A stretch of DNA of 13,764 bases from a virus (lineage: Duplodnaviria; Heunggongvirae; Uroviricota; Caudoviricetes): the IMG/VR virus record IMGVR_UViG_2541047849_000006, one strand, 5' to 3'. A program made the position numbers and the translations under genes. The notes below the pieces were generated by a model, which worked only from the letters and a program-made list of their open reading frames with translations, made no database searches and was not told where the DNA came from. Shown piece by piece: positions 3,339-13,764 of this stretch; position 1 is the first letter of the stretch, and every line of letters starts with the position of its first letter.

Positions 3339-3577
3339 CAGAGTTCATCCAGCGTCACACGTACTGGCTTAGGATTACGAAGCCGTTCTTTCACTATCTC
3401 CACAAGTTCAGCATCTTCATCACTCAGGAGTGTCTGTTTGAACGGCAAGCGTTCATTGTCAGCGATATACTCGAGCATGAGACGAAGCGCTTCAGAAGGA
3501 GTTACACCCATTTTTTCAAGCGCGGCGTAAGAACGCGCTTTAAGTTCATCGTCAATACGCAGGTTAATGCTACCCAT
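3338..3577 (-). CDS. relB: RelB antitoxin (79 aa)
   Basis: Protein MGSINLRIDDELKARSYAALEKMGVTPSEALRLMLEYIADNERLPFKQTLLSDEDAELVEIVKERLRNPKPVRVTLDEL recognised as E. coli RelB (ribbon-helix-helix antitoxin); SD 'gaggtg' upstream. Confidence 0.93.
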   Translation of the reverse strand: MGSINLRIDDELKARSYAALEKMGVTPSEALRLMLEYIADNERLPFKQTLLSDEDAELVEIVKERLRNPKPVRVTLDEL

Positions 3578-3588
3578 GTCTTACACCT

Positions 3589-3614
3589 CTTGTAATTACA
3601 AATGTCATTACAAG
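3589..3614 (-). promoter_or_regulatory. relBE operator: two adjacent 12-bp dyad-symmetric repeats just upstream of the relB SD
   Basis: Minus-strand 'ttgtaatgacat' + 'ttgtaattacaa' (the second is a perfect palindrome), 12 nt upstream of the relB ATG. Matches the relO hexad-repeat operator as recalled. Confidence 0.6.
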
Positions 3615-3907
3615 TATCGCACTACAACATGCTTAGGGCAAGTCACGAAGGAAGTCAGAAAGTAGTCGTAAGAACGGTGATCACTGTCCGCTTTGTGCCA
3701 GGAGCAGCCATTGCTAAGTCCATCCTGTATTGTGCAGGTCAGCTCGTTTTTAAAGAGTCCGGCCATCATCTTACTGGTACAGACACCATATACTTTGTGA
3801 CGGTCAGGCTACATATGCACAACTCAACTTATTCATCTATTTTTTGCTTTAGCATGTCAGTGTTGCTTTCTCGTCGGCGGGTGAGCGGTGACCTGACCTG
3901 TCGATAA
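3602..3907 (+). CDS. ydfV: ydfV-like ORF (101 aa); coding status doubtful
   Basis: ORF of the length and position I recall for K-12 ydfV, but the start sits inside the relBE operator and the product looks low-complexity. Retained only on positional grounds. Confidence 0.25.
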   Translation: MSLQVSHYNMLRASHEGSQKVVVRTVITVRFVPGAAIAKSILYCAGQLVFKESGHHLTGTDTIYFVTVRLHMHNSTYSSIFCFSMSVLLSRRRVSGDLTCR

Positions 3908-4059
3908 AGGAACGTAACACGTTTTATGCAACACCCGCATGCGGCAGAAAATTATTGCCGAACGTTTACCCCTGTCAACAAGCTTTACTTTCTGAGGCGC
4001 GCCAGCCCGCGAGGAAAACAATCTGAACATCAAACAATTAATGACACAAGAAATACGAT

Positions 4060-4086
4060 TAAAGATTTTTTTGTGCATGCCGATAG
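4060..4086 (+). promoter_or_regulatory. Sigma-28 (FliA) class promoter of flxA
   Basis: 'taaagatt' (4060-4067), an 11-nt spacer, then 'gccgatag' (4079-4086), against the consensus TAAAGTTT-N11-GCCGATAA. It is 24 nt upstream of the flxA ATG, which has SD 'aaaggag'. Confidence 0.7.
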
Positions 4087-4109
4087 TGCTTTTTTAAAAG
4101 GAGAAATCT

Positions 4110-4442
4110 ATGTCTGTCACAATTCAGGGAAATACCTCAACCGTTATTTCAAACAACTCCGCCCCGGAAGGAACATCAGAAATAGCCAAAATCACAAGAC
4201 AAATTCAGGTGCTGACTGAAAAGCTTGGGAAAATCTCATCGGAAGAGGGGATGACGACACAGCAGAAAAAAGAAATGGCTGCATTGGTACAGAAGCAAAT
4301 TGAAAGCCTCTGGGCTCAACTGGAGCAGTTGTTAAGGCAGCAGGCAGAGAAAAAGAATGAAGACGCGACAGTTCAGCCTGATAAAAAAGAAGAGAAAAAA
4401 GACGATACAAATACCGCTGGCACCATTGATATTTACGTCTAA
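4110..4442 (+). CDS. flxA: FlxA, FliA-regulated protein (110 aa)
   Basis: Protein MSVTIQGNTSTVISNNSAPEGTSEIAKITRQIQVLTEKLGKISSEEG... recognised as FlxA; strong SD; sigma-28 promoter upstream. Confidence 0.88.
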   Translation: MSVTIQGNTSTVISNNSAPEGTSEIAKITRQIQVLTEKLGKISSEEGMTTQQKKEMAALVQKQIESLWAQLEQLLRQQAEKKNEDATVQPDKKEEKKDDTNTAGTIDIYV

Positions 4443-4456
4443 GTGACAGCCGTATT

Positions 4457-4480
4457 GTGGCCCTCATCGGGCCACTTTTC
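4457..4480 (+). terminator. Rho-independent terminator downstream of flxA
   Basis: Stem 'gtggccc' (4457-4463), loop 'tcatc', 'gggccac' (4469-4475), then 'ttttc'. Confidence 0.65.
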
Positions 4481-4799
4481 GCCATCAGCCTTTTCTTTAA
4501 AGACATATTATCTTTGTATCATTTCTGATAGTTAACATTACAAGATATAAGTAATGGACGCACTCCCAATTAGTCTATTTAAATCGCCACGAGTTTAACT
4601 GACAACCCATGATCAATTATGAATTGCAACTATTTCTGTAGTCACTTTTGTGGGGACAGTCCACAAAACTGCCAACTTCCGCTTCTTGCTCTTAGCGGAC
4701 ATTAGCATAGGCTATTTACCATAACGCCTCATTACGCGCACCGCCCAGACTGACTCAGCGCGTTTCTGGCATATCCCCGGTAAAACAAGTAACAAACCA

Positions 4800-6260
4800 C
4801 CCGAAAATGAACACCAGAAACGCGACTTAAGAATCTACCCTATGAATGGATATGCACTCAACCGAATCGATCTTGGTTTCAATCTTTTTTATCGGGATCA
4901 GGCTTCTTTTTAGGTAACTTCGGGGGCTTAACTTGCTGATGACTTTGCGTTCGGCGCGTAAGCCAGGGATGGTCAGCTTTAGGTTTAACATAGTATTTTG
5001 AGCGTAAATCAATACGGGCATTATCCACTCGTTCATGGACACTCTTTTCATCATCCAGTGGTATAGGCTCCGGGCCATCAACATACTTTTCCCAGCCCAG
5101 CGCTTTCCCGTCATACAGAACGTTAATTTCACCGTCAAAGTTCTCGCATACAGTAACAACCGAATGCCTAAGTCGATATCCCCGGCCCTCACTGCGTACC
5201 TGAAACGCACTGCTTTTGTACTGGAAAGTGAGATTTTTAGACAGAACGCGCTTCGCCTGTAGGCTGAAGATATAACCCAGTTCCTCTTCAGAATGGTGCA
5301 CATCAAGATGAGCATTATCAGTAGTACGAGGCGACGTAGCGAACCGGTTGTTATAGGCTTCAATAAAGGTCGGCAACCATGCATTTGCTGTTTCAATATC
5401 ACTGATATTCTGAAGCCGCATTTCTTTGACCAGCCTGTCCTGTAGTGTCTGATTGGCGCGCTCTACCCGCCCTTTTGCCTGCGGGCTGTTGGCATGGATT
5501 GGCTCGATGCCCAGTGTCTTTATCGCACGAGTGAACTGGGTCAGCTCACCTTCCCGCTCTGGGTTATTTACCCTGAATATACTGTGTCTATCAGAGTAGA
5601 GAGCGAGCGGTACGCCATGATCATTAAGGTAACCCCGGAGGGTTTCCATGTAAGCCCGGGTTGTTTCAGCAGGCACAAAACGCAACGCCATCAACGCACT
5701 GGTGGCATCATCAATGAAAACGATCAGTGTACATCTGGGGCCTCGATTTTCAAACCAGTCATGAGGTGAGCCATCAATCTGGATCAGTTCACCGTAAGAT
5801 GGTCGTCGCATGCGGCGTTGATATATACGGGCAATTTTACGACGGCGTTCACGCCATAACCCCTCTTCTATCATCCACTTTCTGAGAGTTTCAACGGATA
5901 AAGATAAACCGTGTATCTCGCGCAATTTTTCGCACGCAAACGTAGGTCCAAAATCAGCGTAACGGCCTTTGAGGAGTGAAATTACTGTTGCTCTGAATTC
6001 AGTAGAAAAGGAATTATTAGGACGCTTTCCACGTCGGTGGGAAACCAGACCAGAAGGCCCTTCATTTCTATACCGTTGCACCAGACGTTTAACCTGCCGA
6101 ATAGAAATGCCAATGCGTGCCGCAGCTTGTTCCTGAATAATCTGAAGTCGGTGGAGTTCCTTATGACTCATCGTAACAGTCTCTTTGATCATGAAAAATC
6201 CCCCAGAGAATTGTCTGGGGACATTTTAGAATGGTTCAAAGGGGACATTACAGCTTGGTG
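4800..6260 (-). mobile_element. Insertion sequence carrying a single DDE/rve transposase gene; ends are approximate and terminal inverted repeats were not resolved
   Basis: A 437-aa transposase ORF with short flanks, sitting where K-12 Qin (as recalled) has no such gene. The boundaries are a guess from the ORF limits; I could not identify the IRs or a target-site duplication by eye. Confidence 0.35.
4879..6192 (-). CDS. DDE-type transposase with an N-terminal HTH and an rve (integrase-core) catalytic domain, IS481/ISNCY-like (437 aa)
   Basis: N-terminal HTH-like segment (..IGISIRQVKRLVQRY..); candidate catalytic residues in 'IQIDGSPHDWFE', 'LALYSDRHSIF' and 'ANSPQAKGRVERANQTLQDRL' (D, D, E with a downstream basic residue); basic C-terminal tail. 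SD 'ggggga' 8 nt upstream of the ATG at 6192. Confidence 0.85.
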   Translation of the reverse strand: MIKETVTMSHKELHRLQIIQEQAAARIGISIRQVKRLVQRYRNEGPSGLVSHRRGKRPNNSFSTEFRATVISLLKGRYADFGPTFACEKLREIHGLSLSVETLRKWMIEEGLWRERRRKIARIYQRRMRRPSYGELIQIDGSPHDWFENRGPRCTLIVFIDDATSALMALRFVPAETTRAYMETLRGYLNDHGVPLALYSDRHSIFRVNNPEREGELTQFTRAIKTLGIEPIHANSPQAKGRVERANQTLQDRLVKEMRLQNISDIETANAWLPTFIEAYNNRFATSPRTTDNAHLDVHHSEEELGYIFSLQAKRVLSKNLTFQYKSSAFQVRSEGRGYRLRHSVVTVCENFDGEINVLYDGKALGWEKYVDGPEPIPLDDEKSVHERVDNARIDLRSKYYVKPKADHPWLTRRTQSHQQVKPPKLPKKKPDPDKKD

Positions 6261-6526
6261 TTAACAATAGCCTGCTTCTCCGTGCCTTTCGGCACGTAAG
6301 AGGCTAACCTACATGTGTCTAGCATGAAATTGGCCTCAGATTAATGTTAAGCGTCTTGCAGGACGCGTAATGTTAACTGGGGCTTTTCTCTATCTGCCGT
6401 TGGTGTCCATGCCCGAGGCAGATAGCCTCAAGCACCCGCAGTCATTCTACTTAACTAAGATTTCCCCGCAAACCGTTTTTGTCCAGCACAGTAAATATCC
6501 AACTAAACCAATGGAGTTCGCTGTAT

Positions 6527-8674: not shown

Positions 8675-9202
8675 TTATCCTCTGAAACCAGGCGGAATTT
8701 CTGTATCCGGTTCAGAAATATGATTAACACAACGCTGTACAGGTGAACGTCCCAGGCGGATGACCAGTTCGTCCCATTTTTCGCGGAGCTTTGACGGGCT
8801 CATGATGTTTTTTACCCAGAATGGATCTCGCTGAACCCGACCAAACATTTCGCAAATTTGTCTGTGGCTTCTGCCATCCAGCATCCGCATTGTGCGCACG
8901 TCATTGGCCCAGGCAGTCCAGTTAGCCTCCATAATTGCAGGCACTAGCGCCGTGAACTTTTCACGCTTATCCCTGGTGTCGATAGCCTTCCAGCGTTCAA
9001 ATATCTTCACTCGATTAACGCCAAGCGCTCGCTGATCAATCGCGCCACCTTCATATGTGACACGCTGAACATCGATGTTCGGGCGCTCTTTCAAAGCCCA
9101 GAATGCTTCAGTGATTAATATCGTCGCCTGCTCCTGTGTCATTCCTGGTCGACATATCCAGGCATCCAGAGCCTCACGAGCCTGTTCAGGAGTGATTTTC
9201 AT
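8675..9202 (-). CDS. Hypothetical prophage early protein (175 aa), first gene downstream of dicC
   Basis: ATG start at 9202, overlapping the dicC 3' end by 17 nt. Product MKITPEQAREALDAWICRPGMTQEQATILITEAFWALKERPNIDV... not recognised. It occupies the position of the first post-Cro gene in lambdoid early-right operons. Confidence 0.6.
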   Translation of the reverse strand: MKITPEQAREALDAWICRPGMTQEQATILITEAFWALKERPNIDVQRVTYEGGAIDQRALGVNRVKIFERWKAIDTRDKREKFTALVPAIMEANWTAWANDVRTMRMLDGRSHRQICEMFGRVQRDPFWVKNIMSPSKLREKWDELVIRLGRSPVQRCVNHISEPDTEIPPGFRG

Positions 9203-9416
9203 TGTTCAACCGCCCCGCCCGCTTCGTCTTACGATATTCATCATAAACTTTGGGATCATACTGAAGCTCCCCGCCAGATGCCTCCTGTAGACGCATCGCG
9301 CGACCTTCGGGAACTAAATCCCCTTTCCAGCTATAAAGCGAAGCCAAACGAATACCTGCTGCTTGTGCAAGTTTTGTTTTTGAACCGAAATACAAAAGAG
9401 CGTCAGTTTTAAGCAT
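9186..9416 (-). CDS. dicC: DicC, Cro-like regulator of the Qin immunity region (76 aa)
   Basis: Protein MLKTDALLYFGSKTKLAQAAGIRLASLYSWKGDLVPEGRAMRLQEASGGELQYDPKVYDEYRKTKRAGRLNNENHS recognised as DicC; divergent from dicA; SD 'aaggtg' upstream. Confidence 0.85.
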   Translation of the reverse strand: MLKTDALLYFGSKTKLAQAAGIRLASLYSWKGDLVPEGRAMRLQEASGGELQYDPKVYDEYRKTKRAGRLNNENHS

Positions 9417-9430
9417 TTAAAACACCTTTA

Positions 9431-9450
9431 TTGTTAGTCATAACTAACAA
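9431..9450. promoter_or_regulatory. Operator-like 20-bp near-palindrome in the dicC/dicA intergenic region
   Basis: 'ttgttagtcataactaacaa', with half-sites TTAGT / ACTAA and one central mismatch. It overlaps the predicted dicC -10 and transcript start. Confidence 0.6.
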
Positions 9451-9477
9451 GATAGATGTTAACAAAAACATAGTCAA
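9449..9477 (-). promoter_or_regulatory. Candidate sigma-70 promoter of dicC
   Basis: Minus strand -35 'ttgact' (9477..9472), 17-nt spacer, -10 'tatctt' (9454..9449). Confidence 0.5.
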
Positions 9478-9483
9478 TACGAT

Positions 9484-9497
9484 TTAGCATTAGCTAA
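9484..9497. promoter_or_regulatory. Second operator-like site abutting the dicA start codon
   Basis: 'ttagcattagctaa': inverted half-sites TTAGC / GCTAA, ending 3 nt before the dicA ATG. dicA has no recognisable SD, so the transcript may be leaderless. Confidence 0.4.
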
Positions 9498-9499
9498 CT

Positions 9500-9907
9500 A
9501 TGGAAACAAAAAATTTAACTATCGGCGAACGCATCAGGTATCGTCGGAAAAACCTCAAACACACCCAAAGGTCTCTTGCTAAAGCCCTGAAAATCTCCCA
9601 TGTGTCTGTATCACAATGGGAACGGGGTGATAGTGAACCTACAGGGAAGAACCTTTTTGCCCTCAGCAAAGTATTGCAATGCTCACCAACATGGATTCTA
9701 TTTGGCGATGAAGACAAGCAACCAACACCACCTGTTGAGAAGCCAGTTGCCTTATCCCCCAAAGAACTAGAGCTCCTTGAGCTGTTTAATGCACTGCCAG
9801 AATCAGAACAGGATACCCAGCTCGCCGAAATGCGAGCTCGAGTAAAAAACTTCAATAAACTCTTTGAAGAATTACTAAAAGCCCGTCAGCGGACAAATAA
9901 AAGATAA
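9500..9907 (+). CDS. dicA: DicA, CI/C2-like HTH repressor (135 aa)
   Basis: Protein METKNLTIGERIRYRRKNLKHTQRSLAKALKISHVSVSQWERGDSEPTGKNLFALSKVLQCSPTWILFGDEDK... recognised as DicA (Xre-type HTH). Confidence 0.9.
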   Translation: METKNLTIGERIRYRRKNLKHTQRSLAKALKISHVSVSQWERGDSEPTGKNLFALSKVLQCSPTWILFGDEDKQPTPPVEKPVALSPKELELLELFNALPESEQDTQLAEMRARVKNFNKLFEELLKARQRTNKR

Positions 9908-9967
9908 CATCATCAATGAGTTATCTTTTACCACATCAATTATGTTAGCTATAGCATACAAAATCAC

Positions 9968-9996
9968 TTGACCGATATGTTAGTCATGACTAATCT
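9968..9996 (+). promoter_or_regulatory. Candidate promoter with an embedded perfect 14-bp palindromic operator (OL-like) upstream of the large exonuclease-domain ORF
   Basis: -35 'ttgacc' (9968-9973), 17-nt spacer, -10 'taatct' (9991-9996). The perfect palindrome 'ttagtcatgactaa' (9980-9993) has the same TTAGT/ACTAA half-sites as the dicC/dicA operator. Confidence 0.55.
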
Positions 9997-10079
9997 TGTT
10001 TGCATCAACACACCGCACGGTGTTCTCAGCAAACAGTTCCGCTATGGTTATTAGCGCACAGGAATTGTTGCAGGAAGAC

Positions 10080-12125
10080 ATGGCAACATTCGACGGACAT
10101 ATCGTTGAAGCGTTGATGAAAATGCCAGAAGTTAACGCCATGTATCCGGAGCTTAAGTTGCACGCCATTGGGTGGGTTAAGCATAAATGTATTCCTGGTG
10201 CTAAATGGCCCGAAATTCAGGCAGAGATGCGCATCTGGAAAAAACGTCGCGAAGGTGAACGCAAGGAAACCGGAAAATACACGTCTGTTGTTGATCTCGC
10301 CCGCGCCAGAGCCAATCAACAGTACACTGAAAATTCAACAGGAAAAATCAGCCCGGTCATTGCTGCCATTCATCGCGAATACAAGCAGACATGGAAAACA
10401 CTGGATGACGAACTGGCCTACGCTCTCTGGCCTAGTGATGTGGATGCCGGAAACATTGACGGCAGCATCCATCGCTGGGCAAAAAAAGAAGTTATCGACA
10501 ACGACCGCGAAGACTGGAAGCGTATCTCGGCATCAATGCGCAAACAGCCTGATGCCCTTCGCTACGACCGCCAAACTATTTTTGGCCTTGTCCGTGAGCG
10601 TCCGATCGACATTCACAAAGATCCCGTAGCACTGAACAAATATATCTGCGAATACCTGACGACAAAGGGCGTGTTTGAGAATGAAGAAACAGACCTGGGC
10701 ACTGTTGATGTTCTCCAGTCATCAGAAACACAAACTGATGCAGTGGAAACTGAGGTATCTGATATCCCAAAAAATGAAACCGCGCCGGAAGCTGAACCAT
10801 CTGTAGAGCGTGAGGGGCCGTTCTATTTCCTCTTCGCAGATAAGGACGGAGAAAAATACGGTCGCGCAAACAAACTCTCTGGTCTGGATAAGGCACTGGC
10901 TGCTGGCGCCACTGAAATCACAAAAGAAGAATATTTTGCCCGAAAAAATGGCACATACACGGGCTTACCGCAAAATGTAGATACCGCTGAAGATTCAGAA
11001 CAACCAGAGCCGATAAAAGTTACCGCTGACGAAGTAAACAAAATTATGCAGGCAGCCAATATCAGCCAGCCTGACGCCGATAAGTTGCTTGCTGCATCAC
11101 GTGGTGAATTTGTTGAAGGGATTAGTGACCCGAATGATCCGAAATGGGTTAAGGGGCTCCAGACCCGCGATTCTGTGAACCAGAACCAGCATGAATCGGA
11201 ACGGAACTACCAAAAAGCGGAACAAAACAGTCCAAATGCGTTACAAAACGAGCCAGAAACGAAACAGCCTGAACCAGTAGCGCAACAGGAAGTGGAAAAA
11301 GTCTGCACCGCCTGCGGTCAGACCGGCGGCGGCAACTGCCATGATTGTGGCGCGGTGATGGGCGACGCAACATACCAAGAAACATTCGATGAAGAGTATC
11401 AGGTTGAAGTTCAGGAAGATGATCCGGAGGAAATGGAAGGCGCTGAACATCCACACAAGGAGAACACTGGCGGCAATCAGCATCACAATAGCGATAATGA
11501 AACTGGCGAGACGGCAGATCACCCAATTAAGGTGAACGGTCATCACGAAATCACATCCACCAGCAGGACGTGTGACCATCTAATGATCGACCTTGAAACC
11601 ATGGGAAAAAATCCTGATGCCCCGATCATCTCAATAGGTGCAATATTTTTCGATCCGCAAACCGGAGATATGGGACCGGAATTTAGTAAGACTATCGATC
11701 TGGAAACTGCTGGCGGAGTCATTGATCGGGACACCATTAAATGGTGGCTTAAGCAATCACGCGAAGCGCAATCTGCCATTATGACCGATGAAATCCCGTT
11801 AGATGATGCACTGTTACAATTGCGAGAATTTATCGACGAAAACTCCGGTGAATTTTTTGTTCAGGTTTGGGGAAATGGAGCCAACTTCGACAACACGATT
11901 TTGCGCCGTTCATACGAACGGCAGGGGATCCCCTGCCCGTGGCGTTACTACAACGATCGCGATGTACGCACAATCGTTGAGCTGGGGAAAGCCATAGACT
12001 TCGATGCCAGAACGGCTATTCCATTCGAAGGTGAGCGCCATAATGCACTTGATGACGCCCGTTACCAGGCAAAATACGTTTCAGTTATCTGGCAAAAACT
12101 GATCCCGAGTCAGGCTGATTCTTAA
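10080..12125 (+). CDS. Large early-left protein: unknown N-terminal domain, acidic low-complexity linker, CxxC..CxxC zinc ribbon, and a C-terminal DnaQ-like (DEDDh) 3'-5' exonuclease domain
   Basis: The track ORF (9996..12125, 709 aa) starts at TTG; the ATG at 10080 with SD 'aggaag' gives 681 aa. Zinc ribbon 'CTACGQTGGGNCHDCG' at ~11304-11352. Exo motifs 'MIDLETMG' (D/E at 11589-11597), 'WGNGANFDNTIL' (D at 11889) and 'HNALDDARY' (H at 12039) place the exonuclease domain at ~11570-12100. Confidence 0.8.
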   Translation: MATFDGHIVEALMKMPEVNAMYPELKLHAIGWVKHKCIPGAKWPEIQAEMRIWKKRREGERKETGKYTSVVDLARARANQQYTENSTGKISPVIAAIHREYKQTWKTLDDELAYALWPSDVDAGNIDGSIHRWAKKEVIDNDREDWKRISASMRKQPDALRYDRQTIFGLVRERPIDIHKDPVALNKYICEYLTTKGVFENEETDLGTVDVLQSSETQTDAVETEVSDIPKNETAPEAEPSVEREGPFYFLFADKDGEKYGRANKLSGLDKALAAGATEITKEEYFARKNGTYTGLPQNVDTAEDSEQPEPIKVTADEVNKIMQAANISQPDADKLLAASRGEFVEGISDPNDPKWVKGLQTRDSVNQNQHESERNYQKAEQNSPNALQNEPETKQPEPVAQQEVEKVCTACGQTGGGNCHDCGAVMGDATYQETFDEEYQVEVQEDDPEEMEGAEHPHKENTGGNQHHNSDNETGETADHPIKVNGHHEITSTSRTCDHLMIDLETMGKNPDAPIISIGAIFFDPQTGDMGPEFSKTIDLETAGGVIDRDTIKWWLKQSREAQSAIMTDEIPLDDALLQLREFIDENSGEFFVQVWGNGANFDNTILRRSYERQGIPCPWRYYNDRDVRTIVELGKAIDFDARTAIPFEGERHNALDDARYQAKYVSVIWQKLIPSQADS

Positions 12126-12136
12126 TGTTCAACTGT

Positions 12137-12168
12137 CGCCGGTTGTGACTGGTATTCTGCAACCGGCG
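12137..12168 (+). other. Perfect 9-bp inverted repeat (hairpin) between the exonuclease-domain gene and xis
   Basis: 'cgccggttg' (12137-12145), 14-nt loop, 'caaccggcg' (12160-12168). No T-tract follows, so it is not a canonical intrinsic terminator. Confidence 0.4.
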
Positions 12169-12197
12169 CTCGTCTGATGTAAGAGATAAAGAAATCG

Positions 12198-12449
12198 ATG
12201 AGCGAAGTAATCATGATTGTCTCTCCCGGCAAATGGGTATCCGAAGAGCAGTTAATTGCGCTGAAAGGAATAAAAAAAGGTACGTTAAAAAAGGCCCGGG
12301 AAAAATCGTTTATGGAAGGAAGGGAATATAAGCATGTCGCTCATGACGGTATGCCATGGGATAACAGTCCATGCTTTTACAACCTGGAAGAAATTGATCG
12401 CTGGATTGAGCGCCAGGCATCAGCGAGACCAAGACGTCATCTTACTTGA
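12198..12449 (+). CDS. xis: Excisionase (lambda Xis-like, 83 aa)
   Basis: Small basic protein immediately upstream of the integrase; '..EGREYKHV..' resembles the lambda Xis '..DGREYLFHE..' motif. The start is not certain (alternative ATG at 12213). Confidence 0.65.
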   Translation: MSEVIMIVSPGKWVSEEQLIALKGIKKGTLKKAREKSFMEGREYKHVAHDGMPWDNSPCFYNLEEIDRWIERQASARPRRHLT

Positions 12450-12483
12450 CTAAAAGCCACACTAACTAATGAGAGAAGTTGAA

Positions 12484-13764
12484 ATGAAATATCCGACAGG
12501 CGTGGAAAACCATGGAGGGAAATTACGTATCTGGTTTGTTTATAAAGACGTAAGAGTCAGGGAAAATCTGGGGGTTCCTGACACAGCAAAAAACAGGCGC
12601 GTTGCAGGTGAACTACGCTCCTCTGTTTGTTACGCAATAAAAACTGGTGTTTTCGACTATGCAAAACAGTTTCCCTCCTCACGCAATCTGGAAAAATTTG
12701 GTGAGGCCCGACAAGATTTAACCATAAAAGAACTGGCTGAAAAATTTCTGGCACTGAAAGAAACTGAAGTCGCAAAAACATCACTCAACACATACCGTGC
12801 CGTCATCAAAAATATCCTGAGCATAATCGGTGAAAAAAATCTTGCCTCATCGATTAATAAAGAAAAATTACTGGAGGTTCGTAAAGAGTTACTGACTGGA
12901 TACCAGATCCCCAAAAGTAACTATATTGTTACACAACCAGGGAGATCGGCTGTAACTGTAATTAATTACATGACAAATCTTAACGCCGTGTTCCAGTTTG
13001 GTGTTGATAACGGTTACCTGGCAGATAATCCGTTTAAGGGGATCTCGCCATTAAAGGAATCAAGAACCATTCCGGATCCTCTTTCGCGGGAAGAATTTAT
13101 CCGTCTTATCGATGCGTGCAGAAATCAGCAAGCAAAAAATTTATGGTGTGTTTCTGTTTATACTGGCGTTCGCCCTGGTGAGCTGTGTGCACTTGGATGG
13201 GAGGACATAGATCTGAAAAATGGAACAATGATGATCAGGAGAAATTTAGCAAAAGACCGTTTCACGGTACCAAAAACACAGGCGGGAACCAATCGGGTCA
13301 TTCATCTTATTAAGCCAGCAATCGACGCTCTCCGGAGTCAGATGACATTAACGAGACTGAGCAAAGAGCATATCATTGATGTTCACCTCAGAGAGTATGG
13401 CAGAACAGAAAAACAAAAATGCACCTTTGTTTTTCAACCTGAAGTGTCAGCGAGAGTAAAAAATTATGGTGACCATTTTACCGTTGACTCAATAAGGCAG
13501 ATGTGGGACGCAGCGATAAAACGTGCCGGACTCCGCCATCGAAAATCATATCAGTCGAGACATACTTATGCCTGCTGGTCGCTGACAGCTGGTGCTAACC
13601 CGGCATTTATAGCAAACCAGATGGGCCATGCAGATGCGCAAATGGTATTTCAGGTATACGGAAAATGGATGTCTGAAAACAATAATGCACAGGTAGCTTT
13701 GTTAAATACACAGTTAAGCGAGTTTGCCCCAACCATGCCCCATAACGAAGCAATGAAAAATTAA
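12484..13764 (+). CDS. int: Tyrosine recombinase / phage integrase (lambda Int family)
   Basis: C-terminal catalytic signature '..RHRKSYQSRHTYACWSLTAGANPAFIANQMGHADAQMVFQVYGKW' (R, H-x-x-R-H, nucleophile Y). Probable start at MKYPTG (12484, SD 'gagaag'); the track ORF starts at 12469. The stop codon is the last triplet of the window. Confidence 0.9.
   Translation: MKYPTGVENHGGKLRIWFVYKDVRVRENLGVPDTAKNRRVAGELRSSVCYAIKTGVFDYAKQFPSSRNLEKFGEARQDLTIKELAEKFLALKETEVAKTSLNTYRAVIKNILSIIGEKNLASSINKEKLLEVRKELLTGYQIPKSNYIVTQPGRSAVTVINYMTNLNAVFQFGVDNGYLADNPFKGISPLKESRTIPDPLSREEFIRLIDACRNQQAKNLWCVSVYTGVRPGELCALGWEDIDLKNGTMMIRRNLAKDRFTVPKTQAGTNRVIHLIKPAIDALRSQMTLTRLSKEHIIDVHLREYGRTEKQKCTFVFQPEVSARVKNYGDHFTVDSIRQMWDAAIKRAGLRHRKSYQSRHTYACWSLTAGANPAFIANQMGHADAQMVFQVYGKWMSENNNAQVALLNTQLSEFAPTMPHNEAMKN

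Follow-up and report, generated by a model that had tools for sequence, protein, structure and literature searches.

An exonuclease reading frame beside dicA in a Qin-type prophage is very probably the deletion remnant of a ydfE-family gene

The window analyzed in this work, a stretch of 13,764 nucleotides, contains a single open reading frame (ORF) between dicA and the xis-int genes (positions 9996 to 12125, + strand), as a sequence-only reading of this DNA had reported. Depending on the start codon, the ORF encodes 709 amino acids (TTG at 9996), 693 amino acids (ATG at 10044), or 681 amino acids (ATG at 10080). Upstream lie dicC (9186 to 9416, − strand), which encodes a Cro-like regulator matching the Pfam model P22_Cro and is colinear with the annotated dicC of two comparison sequences (L001 and L003), and dicA (9500 to 9907, + strand), which encodes the CI-like repressor of dicBp and is identical to the dicA annotated in L001. 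Downstream are the excisionase gene xis (12198 to 12449, + strand), annotated in both L001 and L003, and the integrase gene int (12469 to 13764, + strand), for which the PGAP start corresponds to position 12484. In the source genome, rspB and rspA follow int, as they do in the Qin prophage of K-12. The reported absence of dicB and dicF was borne out over the whole window, where dicF was not detected with Rfam and dicB was not detected by tblastn or blastn; searches of the window by tblastn and blastn likewise returned no ydfA, ydfB, ydfC, or ydfD.

Base-by-base comparison and alignment with L001 placed a deletion junction at positions 10043 to 10044, where L001 position 3645 is joined to L001 position 5634 at a 2-bp microhomology (TA). 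The 1,990 bp lost comprise ydfA through ydfD as well as codons 1 to 130 of the exonuclease gene, which encode its YdfE_N domain, and the junction fuses the ydfA leader, 30 bp before the ydfA ATG, to exonuclease codon 131. What remains (10044 to 12125, + strand) is a 5′-truncated ydfE-family exonuclease gene that retains codons 131 to 823 and the stop codon of the intact gene (693 amino acids). The flanks are colinear with those of genomes that have the exonuclease gene along with the dicB operon, with zero and two mismatches, respectively. Relative to the intact allele, only two differences were found, A300D (position 10552) and P563H (position 11341), one of which falls within the zinc ribbon described below; both are nonsynonymous, which fits relaxed constraint, two sites being too few for a conclusion. 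The identical junction is rare, occurring in 3 of 5,426 complete Escherichia coli genomes, and the same allele is labeled elsewhere by PGAP as a pseudogene (“incomplete; missing N-terminus”). No mobile-element ends bounding the 1,990 bp were seen in other genomes, nor was the junction seen as a common state in functional Qin-like phages. Further decay is present in the prophage, in the form of IS1, an ISNCY transposase, and another deletion of 940 bp.

These comparisons bear directly on the earlier proposal that the exonuclease is a distinct cassette in place of the dicB/dicF operon, i.e., an alternative early left module with a new solo function. The ORF does follow dicA directly, and dicB and dicF are indeed missing. 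However, both flanks are nearly identical to genomes in which the dicB operon and the exonuclease occur together, the junction lies inside the gene and is confined to the three genomes noted above, and the ORF is missing the first 130 codons that a cluster of 23,183 sequences possesses. Colinearity and the exact junction already refute the proposal, and we assign it a negligible probability. The gene is instead the normal downstream neighbor of the dicB operon, and the ORF adjoins dicA because the deletion took out ydfA through ydfD along with the first 130 codons of the exonuclease gene itself. The ORF is very probably the deletion remnant of the native exonuclease gene of Qin-type lambdoid prophages, which corresponds to K-12 ydfE in full-length form, and its anomalous position is a matter of prophage decay.

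In intact Qin-like prophages and phages (Tritos, mEp460, and PhiR42_1), the gene order is dicA-ydfABC-dicF-dicB-ydfD-exonuclease (823 amino acids)-xis-int. The window keeps xis-int downstream of the gene, while dicB through ydfD, present upstream in colinear genomes, are deleted. Residues 1 to 256 of the intact 823-residue protein are matched at 100% identity by the K-12 ydfE remnant; this makes the ORF the counterpart, from the full-length gene, of ydfE; the stretch from residue 131 to residue 256 is common to the window ORF and K-12 ydfE. In the slot as given by the sequence-only reading (ydfABC-dicF-dicB-ydfDE), the ORF corresponds to ydfE. Compared with intact alleles (TRITO_27 of Tritos and those of mEp460 and PhiR42_1), the 2.08 kb retained show 99.9% DNA identity, with the YdfE_C and Rv2179c-like domains and the downstream xis-int-rspB order in common; the window allele differs in having lost codons 1 to 130 and the native start, in its fusion to the ydfA leader, and in its two substitutions.

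Family membership is further documented by a precomputed Pfam match of YdfE_C (PF27432) on the exact 693-residue product. YdfE_N (PF27430) is found on 823-residue members and is absent from the window product, which reflects truncation of a family member rather than nonmembership, and the “exonuclease” profile phrog_2082 matches only from position 130. The YdfE-family exonuclease is a known, annotated gene family of predicted function: one 90%-identity cluster contains the 23,183 sequences mentioned above, Pfam defines YdfE_N and YdfE_C, and PGAP applies the name “exonuclease.” The suggestion that the ORF has an undescribed function holds only in a weaker sense: the literature searched yielded no functional study of any YdfE-family exonuclease, whereas the family itself has many members and established names.

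The region of approximately 500 amino acids upstream of the nuclease, the N-terminal ~230 of which had matched nothing recognized in the sequence-only reading, matches YdfE_C, phrog_2082, and RecE residues 278 to 592. Within the YdfE region, two confidently predicted helical domains (10074 to 10673, + strand; ORF residues 11 to 80 and 111 to 210) gave no meaningful match among solved structures. These are followed by a small beta-hairpin/helix domain (10806 to 10958, + strand; residues 255 to 305; GPFYFLF...RANK...EEY) with AF2 pLDDT values of 89 to 97, a motif that recurs in relatives with different C-terminal heads (P0129, P0137, P0141, P0151, and P0156). A zinc ribbon, CTAC-x7-CHDC (11304 to 11348, + strand; residues 421 to 435; AF2 pLDDT of about 75 to 80), does precede the nuclease as described from the sequence, although its spacing is CxxC-x7-CxxC rather than x8; it is common to RecE and missing in most distant relatives. 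The long acidic linker was also correctly recognized and is predicted to be disordered (11367 to 11558, + strand; residues 442 to 505; pLDDT below 50), with 14 acidic residues in one 40-residue block and about 80% identity to RecE residues 540 to 590.

The domain in the C-terminal 180 amino acids (11577 to 12092, + strand) was assigned as a DEDDh 3′-5′ exonuclease of the Rv2179c-like/DexA-like type using Pfam, alignment to DexA, AF2, and Foldseek. The Rv2179c-like model PF16473 matches residues 528 to 699 of the 709-residue reading (E value of 1.9e-67; 226.9 bits against a cutoff of 27). The catalytic residues are D516, E518, D616, H666, and D671 in the 693-residue numbering, and the D504 and E506 previously numbered from the ATG at 10080 are correct. 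In the profile and sequence comparisons, the IDLET, FDNTIL, and HNALDD motifs do align, corresponding to D7/E9, D119, and H186/D191 of T4 DexA, for which residue roles have been described (PMC12153337). AF2 predicts an RNase H-like alpha/beta DEDDh fold with pLDDT above 95, for which the best Foldseek match is DexA (8kel; E value of 7e-10); matches to DexA, RNase T, REXO2, and Orn span E values of 7e-10 to 1e-4. Pfam, the DexA alignment, and Foldseek thus agree with the earlier assignment to a DnaQ-like DEDDh nuclease rather than to PD-(D/E)XK enzymes. The nuclease domain is complete in the remnant and is a predicted 3′-5′ exonuclease. Stand-alone Rv2179c-like exonucleases of phages and bacteria, of about 180 to 195 amino acids, which form hundreds of 50%-identity clusters and have homologs in 1,614 phage records, are 41 to 53% identical to this domain; unlike the window protein, they have no scaffold, zinc ribbon, or linker.

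Given the fold, one reading is that the protein is a DexA/EcD-like “HREX” nuclease acting against the 5hmC DNA of T-even phages, in prophage defense or superinfection exclusion. T4 DexA (PDB entry 8KEL), phage encoded like the window protein, is the closest solved structure and, together with its E. coli homolog EcD, has the same DEDDh/Rv2179c-like fold and all five catalytic residues. In addition, EcD protects against T4, and the YdfE-type exonuclease of phage Evi (VUF53858.1) appears among the DexA homologs in Table S3 of the same study (PMC12153337); DicB, from the same operon, is reported to give phage exclusion (PMC6832061). However, identity to DexA is 32% in the alignment and about 28% to other T-even dexA genes by tblastn, and a Tyr (RYYNDRD) stands where DexA has W152, one of two proposed 5hmC-recognition residues. 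The other, D169, lies in a 14-residue DexA insertion that has no counterpart here, a placement only moderately reliable at 32% identity. The equivalent of D90, a tetramerization residue lost in EcD, is kept as Asp, while Pro occupies the position of S87. In contrast to DexA and EcD, which are small and stand alone, the window protein carries the domain as the head of a chain with several domains. EcD, as judged from its primers, also has different termini. None of the retrieved proteins begin with MIDTET or end with TIPETYD, and a 21-mer of the EcD (HAK9828821.1) reverse primer had no match in viral contigs. Finally, PADLOC matched no defense system, and repression of the gene in the lysogen favors a function in the lytic cycle over standing immunity. 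On balance, we consider a role of this kind improbable.

An exoribonuclease comparable to Mycobacterium tuberculosis Rv2179c or to RNase T, acting on the 3′ ends of RNAs such as host or phage transcripts or small RNAs rather than on DNA, appears similarly doubtful. DEDDh enzymes often act on both DNA and RNA, the Pfam family takes its name from an exoribonuclease, and RNase T, REXO2, and oligoribonuclease are all strong structural matches. Nevertheless, the best match in both structure and sequence is a DNA exonuclease, DexA; moreover, the scaffold is common to the DNA exonuclease RecE, and relatives swap in PD-(D/E)XK DNA nuclease heads.

The comparison with RecE (exodeoxyribonuclease VIII of the Rac prophage) extends beyond the scaffold. 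Like intact YdfE, RecE is encoded by a late gene of a repressor-controlled early left operon, before xis-int. Residues 262 to 627 of the intact YdfE-family protein are homologous to RecE residues 278 to 592 (E value of 1e-61), the zinc ribbon and acidic linker together are about 80% identical between the two, and in both the nuclease lies C-terminal to a long stretch with no known function, which in RecE includes the N-terminal region (PMC11611040). The nucleases themselves differ, being DEDDh (3′-5′) in the YdfE family and PD-(D/E)XK (5′-3′; PF12684) in RecE, and the latter domain is absent from the window protein. The N termini differ as well, with YdfE_N in the YdfE family and Exonuc_VIII (PF06630) in RecE; Exonuc_VIII was found in neither the window ORF nor the intact 823-residue protein. 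The NCBIfam RecE model NF007259 scores 280 bits against a cutoff of 1269 and is matched over model positions 271 to 600 only. No full-length homology to a characterized exonuclease with a partner was found, the likeness to RecE being confined to its uncharacterized middle. The earlier statement that the gene has no partner also holds: no RecT or other annealase gene adjoins the ORF, which is directly followed by xis, and the annotation of phage Tritos, a complete Qin-like genome, includes no annealase at all.

Relatives shuffle these modules, with an Exonuc_VIII N terminus joined to an Rv2179c-like domain in some and a YdfE-type N terminus joined to PDDEXK in others. This swapping of nuclease heads points to a role in DNA end processing, and since the same scaffolds bear PD-(D/E)XK or other heads, the scaffold probably serves to deliver DNA-end-processing modules that can be exchanged. 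Three relatives (P0137, P0151, and P0156) possibly carry a Rad52-like annealase head, a lead rather than a finding, for which Pfam gave subthreshold matches only (E values of 0.004 to 0.03) and a PDB profile search returned nothing.

The first 137 of the 166 bp between dicA and ydfA are kept (9908 to 10044, + strand), with no mismatch to L001 positions 3509 to 3645; the last 29 bp are lost, and with them a GAGG motif just before the ydfA ATG, the probable ydfA Shine-Dalgarno sequence. The promoter dicBp, which DicA represses, and its operators are located in this intergenic region, upstream of ydfA (PMC10448788). The ORF therefore does lie downstream of a repressor-controlled region, as had been supposed, and with 137 of 166 bp surviving, dicBp probably survives. 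Candidate dicBp hexamers (9968 to 9996, + strand) were read from the sequence as TTGACC and TAATCT separated by 17 nucleotides, with the −10-like hexamer at 9991 to 9996 matching the consensus at three of six bases. A sigma-70 promoter scan did not report this candidate, so that promoter retention rests on the 137 bp kept and on the literature. The TTG at 9996 was rejected as a start codon, as it sits in ydfA-leader DNA and overlaps the −10-like hexamer; for the same reason, positions 9996 to 10043 are not native coding sequence of the exonuclease gene. Under an HREX-type function, the deletion might even have put the nuclease directly behind dicBp.

Once DicA repression is lifted (by Rem, urea, heat, or spontaneous switching), the remnant would be transcribed, and translation might begin at Met131, with no Shine-Dalgarno sequence in front of it, or at Met143, which has AGGAAG upstream. 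Alternatively, the ORF may be an inert pseudogene that is untranslated or yields an unstable or mistargeted fragment, its frame being open only because the deletion is recent. The PGAP call, the loss of YdfE_N and of the native start and ribosome-binding site, the nonsynonymous nature of both substitutions, and the decay elsewhere in the prophage argue for inertness, whereas the intact 693-codon frame, the complete catalytic domain, and the retention of most of the dicBp-bearing region together with the in-frame ATG at 10080 and its AGGAAG motif argue against it. We lean slightly toward an inert pseudogene.

For the intact protein, we tentatively propose, at somewhat less than even confidence, a metal-dependent 3′-5′ exonuclease that acts on DNA 3′ ends during early lytic growth. 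The flexible linker would tether the nuclease to a targeting scaffold. The protein has the operon position of RecE and shares its function-unknown central region. Counting against the proposal, digestion with 3′-5′ polarity does not make the 3′ tails that annealase-type recombination uses, and Tritos has no annotated annealase.

A broader and rather unlikely conjecture is that early left proteins of the YdfE/RecE type in lambdoid prophages constitute one modular system, in which a conserved scaffold brings exchangeable heads to one shared target. The scaffold may comprise the structurally unmatched YdfE_N/YdfE_C or Exonuc_VIII regions, with or without the zinc ribbon and acidic linker; the heads seen are DEDDh (3′-5′) and PD-(D/E)XK (5′-3′) nucleases and possibly a Rad52-like annealase; and candidate targets are DNA ends at the replication fork and defense or repair complexes of the host. 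The DEDDh version may act without an annealase in a new role, e.g., in counterdefense or 3′-end trimming. If this were true, the deletion would leave a nuclease switched by Rem/DicA without the toxic dicB and dicF, open to co-option by the host.

The Qin early left region thus contains no new cassette at this locus but rather a natural dicBF-deleted, ydfE-truncated Qin prophage. The deletion took away toxic division-inhibitor and lysis genes along with YdfE_N, and the loss of toxic kil-type genes is a typical step in prophage decay. In its intact form, this abundant E. coli prophage gene joins the central region of RecE to a DexA-like nuclease of opposite polarity, with no annealase. The function of the YdfE family could explain the two-thirds of RecE that have no known function beyond boosting linear-linear recombination, and it could clarify the swapping of nuclease heads on a common scaffold in lambdoid phages.

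The window carries a single plus-strand ORF at 9996-12125, which can be read as 709 aa (TTG 9996), 693 aa (ATG 10044), or 681 aa (ATG 10080), with dicA (9500-9907) on one side and xis/int on the other. In the 709-aa reading, residues 528-699 match the Pfam Rv2179c-like 3'-5' exonuclease domain (E 1.9e-67), and T4 DexA (8KEL/8KEN) is the sole PDB sequence match. When aligned to a T-even DexA, the three C-terminal motifs that a sequence-only reading had called DnaQ-like and DEDDh coincide with D7/E9, D119, and H186/D191, whose catalytic roles in DexA were described in PMC12153337. In an AlphaFold2 model, the domain has a pLDDT of >95, and the top Foldseek match is DexA (E 7e-10), with RNase T, REXO2, 3'hExo, Cap18, and oligoribonuclease next in rank. 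The DEDDh assignment proposed in that reading is therefore solid.

The position of the gene next to dicA proved to result from a deletion. The PHROG profile phrog_2082 ("exonuclease," 823 positions) matches the ORF only from profile position 130, suggesting an N-terminal truncation. When 9400-12500 was compared by megablast with 5,426 complete E. coli genomes, there were hundreds of matches at 99.9%, always as two pieces that together span 5,091 bp, versus 3,101 bp in the window. In the genomes so matched, such as the one with the intact Qin-like reference locus (NZ_CP116046.1), the order is dicC, dicA, and then ydfA-ydfB-ydfC-(dicF)-dicB-ydfD-exonuclease (823 aa)-xis-int-rspB; the same order occurs in phages PhiR42_1, Tritos (where dicF is annotated), mEp460, and vB_EcoS-640R1 and in ompW-integrated prophages. 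Base-by-base comparison with this locus gave 0 mismatches in the left arm (window 9500-10044) and 2 in the right arm (10043-12125), with the dinucleotide TA as their overlap. This comparison shows that a 1,990-bp segment (reference positions 3646-5635) is absent from the window, deleted from 30 bp 5' of the ydfA ATG to exonuclease codon 130; ATG 10044 corresponds to Met131 in the full-length 823-aa product.

Rfam detected no DicF in the window, and tblastn/blastn searches across it gave no match to YdfA, YdfB, YdfC, DicB, YdfD, dicF, or the whole deleted segment, so the reported absence of dicB and dicF stands. The idea that the exonuclease gene occupies the place of that operon does not: in Qin-like prophages, the slot holds the dicB operon and then the 823-aa exonuclease before xis-int, and the 1,990-bp deletion brought the gene next to dicA. 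The large ORF between dicA and xis-int is thus real, but its anomalous position is a deletion artefact. The junction is present in only 3 of the 5,426 genomes, in one of which PGAP labels the gene [quoted passage not shown] From 7044 to its end, the window matches NCBI assembly GCA_000459575.1 at 100% identity; in that assembly, rspB/rspA follow int, as in K-12 Qin.

In K-12 MG1655, the gene 3' of ydfD, interrupted by an IS2 remnant, has the annotation "exonuclease, missing C-terminus"; this ydfE remnant has 256 codons, which match residues 1-256 of the intact protein at 100% identity. The window ORF is ydfE with its C-terminal form undamaged. K-12 retains the head of ydfE, and the window retains the body and tail. 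The sequence-only reading had listed ydfE in the expected operon but did not recognize the large exonuclease gene as ydfE. The family to which the gene belongs is large and already has a name and annotation; elsewhere, the same allele is called a pseudogene.

Of the 166-bp dicA-ydfA intergenic region, 137 bp were kept after the deletion. According to the literature, dicBp, a lambda-PL-like promoter repressed by DicA, lies in this region together with its operators (PMC10448788). TTGACC-17-TAATCT (9968-9996), which the promoter scan tool left unflagged, is the likely candidate for the dicBp hexamers, with a weak -10. Possible DicA operators are two ATGTTAG-containing repeats (9942-9948 and 9977-9983) that lie on either side of the candidate -35 (9968-9973). 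At 9901-9928, a perfect 10-bp inverted repeat (AAAAGATAAC...GTTATCTTTT) overlaps the dicA stop codon and may be the dicA terminator. The GAGG motif just 5' of the ydfA ATG, a probable Shine-Dalgarno sequence, is gone; Met131 (ATG 10044) has no ribosome-binding site, and AGGAAG precedes Met143 (ATG 10080). The remnant is thus a natural dicBF deletion, which leaves a truncated putative nuclease as the first gene after dicBp. The window also retains the antirepressor gene rem (2356-2607). Laboratory cells deleted for dicBF tolerate spontaneous switching of dicBp, which occurs in about 1% of them (PMC10448788).

Only two nucleotides in 2.08 kb differ from the intact allele, both nonsynonymous: A300D (10552) and P563H (11341), the latter changing the second CxxC of the Zn ribbon from CPDC to CHDC. 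These may reflect relaxed constraint after truncation, two sites being too few to test. Together with the IS1 and ISNCY transposase in the prophage and a further 940-bp deletion, they point to decay. The latter deletion, at window 8923-8925, was recognized relative to strain B-JRPT-4119 (L003, 9047-9983), which has the dicB-operon deletion too, and is another mark of stepwise prophage decay; it left a 175-aa YdaT_toxin-family ORF (8675-9202, minus strand), presumably a fusion with an adjacent gene remnant. The IS1 copy (insA/insB; 1-770) extends beyond the left end and abuts ydfU (DUF968; 960-2048), 3' of which the K-12 Qin order of rem, hokD, relBE, ydfV, and flxA is found. A sok antitoxin RNA (full-length Rfam match, 104 bits; 6266-6437, minus strand) lies 74 bp from the intact 437-aa ISNCY-family transposase gene (4879-6192), with no intact Hok-like ORF nearby; hokD is separate and intact (2824-2979). 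Across the collection, no complete E. coli genome matches the whole window colinearly; the best ones do so in 4 to 6 pieces.

Intact proteins contain YdfE_N, YdfE_C, and Rv2179c-like Pfam domains, and the window product contains only the last two. AlphaFold2 models (693-aa numbering) delineate helical domains at aa 11-80 and 111-210 (pLDDT 79-98), a small beta-hairpin/helix domain at 255-305 (89-97), a CxxC-x7-CxxC Zn ribbon at 421-435 (about 75-80), a disordered acidic linker at 442-505 (<50), and the DEDDh domain at 506-690 (>95). By BLASTP, aa 262-627 of the intact protein align with K-12 RecE 278-592 (39% identity, E 1e-61), and the ribbon and linker are about 80% identical to those of RecE; only the E. 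coli YdfE/RecE subset has this ribbon. With the NCBIfam RecE model, the match is confined to positions 271-600 and scores far under the cutoff, and both RecE termini (N-terminal Exonuc_VIII and C-terminal PDDEXK) are missing from the YdfE-type exonuclease. The RecE N-terminal region is not needed for basic recombination yet boosts linear-linear recombination (PMC11611040). The operon position of the exonuclease gene is equivalent to that of recE in Rac. Its description as a solo gene was upheld: xis lies directly 3', and no annealase or Gam is annotated in the complete Tritos genome.

A full HMMER scan with an intact member as the query, covering 1.84 billion cluster representatives, gave 11,778 matches, from which selected large proteins were compared by Pfam. 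A RecE-type Exonuc_VIII N terminus is joined to an Rv2179c-like (DEDDh) head in five relatives (P0133, P0136, P0145, P0161, and P0122), and a YdfE-type N terminus to a RecE-type PDDEXK head in P0141; the two nuclease folds are interchangeable on these scaffolds. Four further proteins (P0129, P0137, P0151, and P0156) combine a YdfE-type N terminus with a head lacking a Pfam match. The C-terminal ∼280 aa of P0137, P0151, and P0156 show consistent subthreshold Rad52_Rad22 matches (E 0.004-0.03) and may be annealase heads on the same scaffold; a PDB profile search gave no confirmation of a Rad52 relation. These domains carry a KKSLTDAxKKALSxLGF motif, and PHROGs labels the proteins "exonuclease." Very many phages and bacteria also encode the DEDDh domain by itself, as a protein of about 180-195 aa.

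We found no study in the literature testing any YdfE-family protein; among characterized proteins, the nearest are T4 DexA and EcD, an E. coli homologue of DexA. DexA is a scavenger of host DNA with a role in intron homing, whereas 5hmC DNA is degraded by EcD, which gives protection against T4 (PMC12153337). A YdfE-type exonuclease may serve in defense or exclusion. PADLOC gave no match for it, and in our alignment neither residue proposed for 5hmC recognition is conserved (DexA W152 is Tyr, and D169 falls inside a DexA-only insertion); the equivalent of D90, whose loss marks EcD, is present in the window protein. The "DexA homologues" in Table S3 of PMC12153337 include VUF53858.1, an 826-aa exonuclease of YdfE type from the temperate phage Evi (L013, 1112-3592), so the YdfE-DexA relationship is already on record. 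As VUF53858.1 is multidomain rather than small and DexA-like, the conservation counts of that paper combine true DexA orthologues with multidomain exonucleases of prophages. The enzyme may alternatively act on RNA. From the recE-equivalent operon position, the shared scaffold, and the interchangeable nuclease heads, we tentatively favor, at somewhat less than even confidence, a lytic-cycle DNA 3'-end exonuclease that would be brought to its target by the RecE-like scaffold. The remaining interest lies in the family rather than the window locus, namely, in its function, its RecE-like scaffold, and the head swapping among its relatives.
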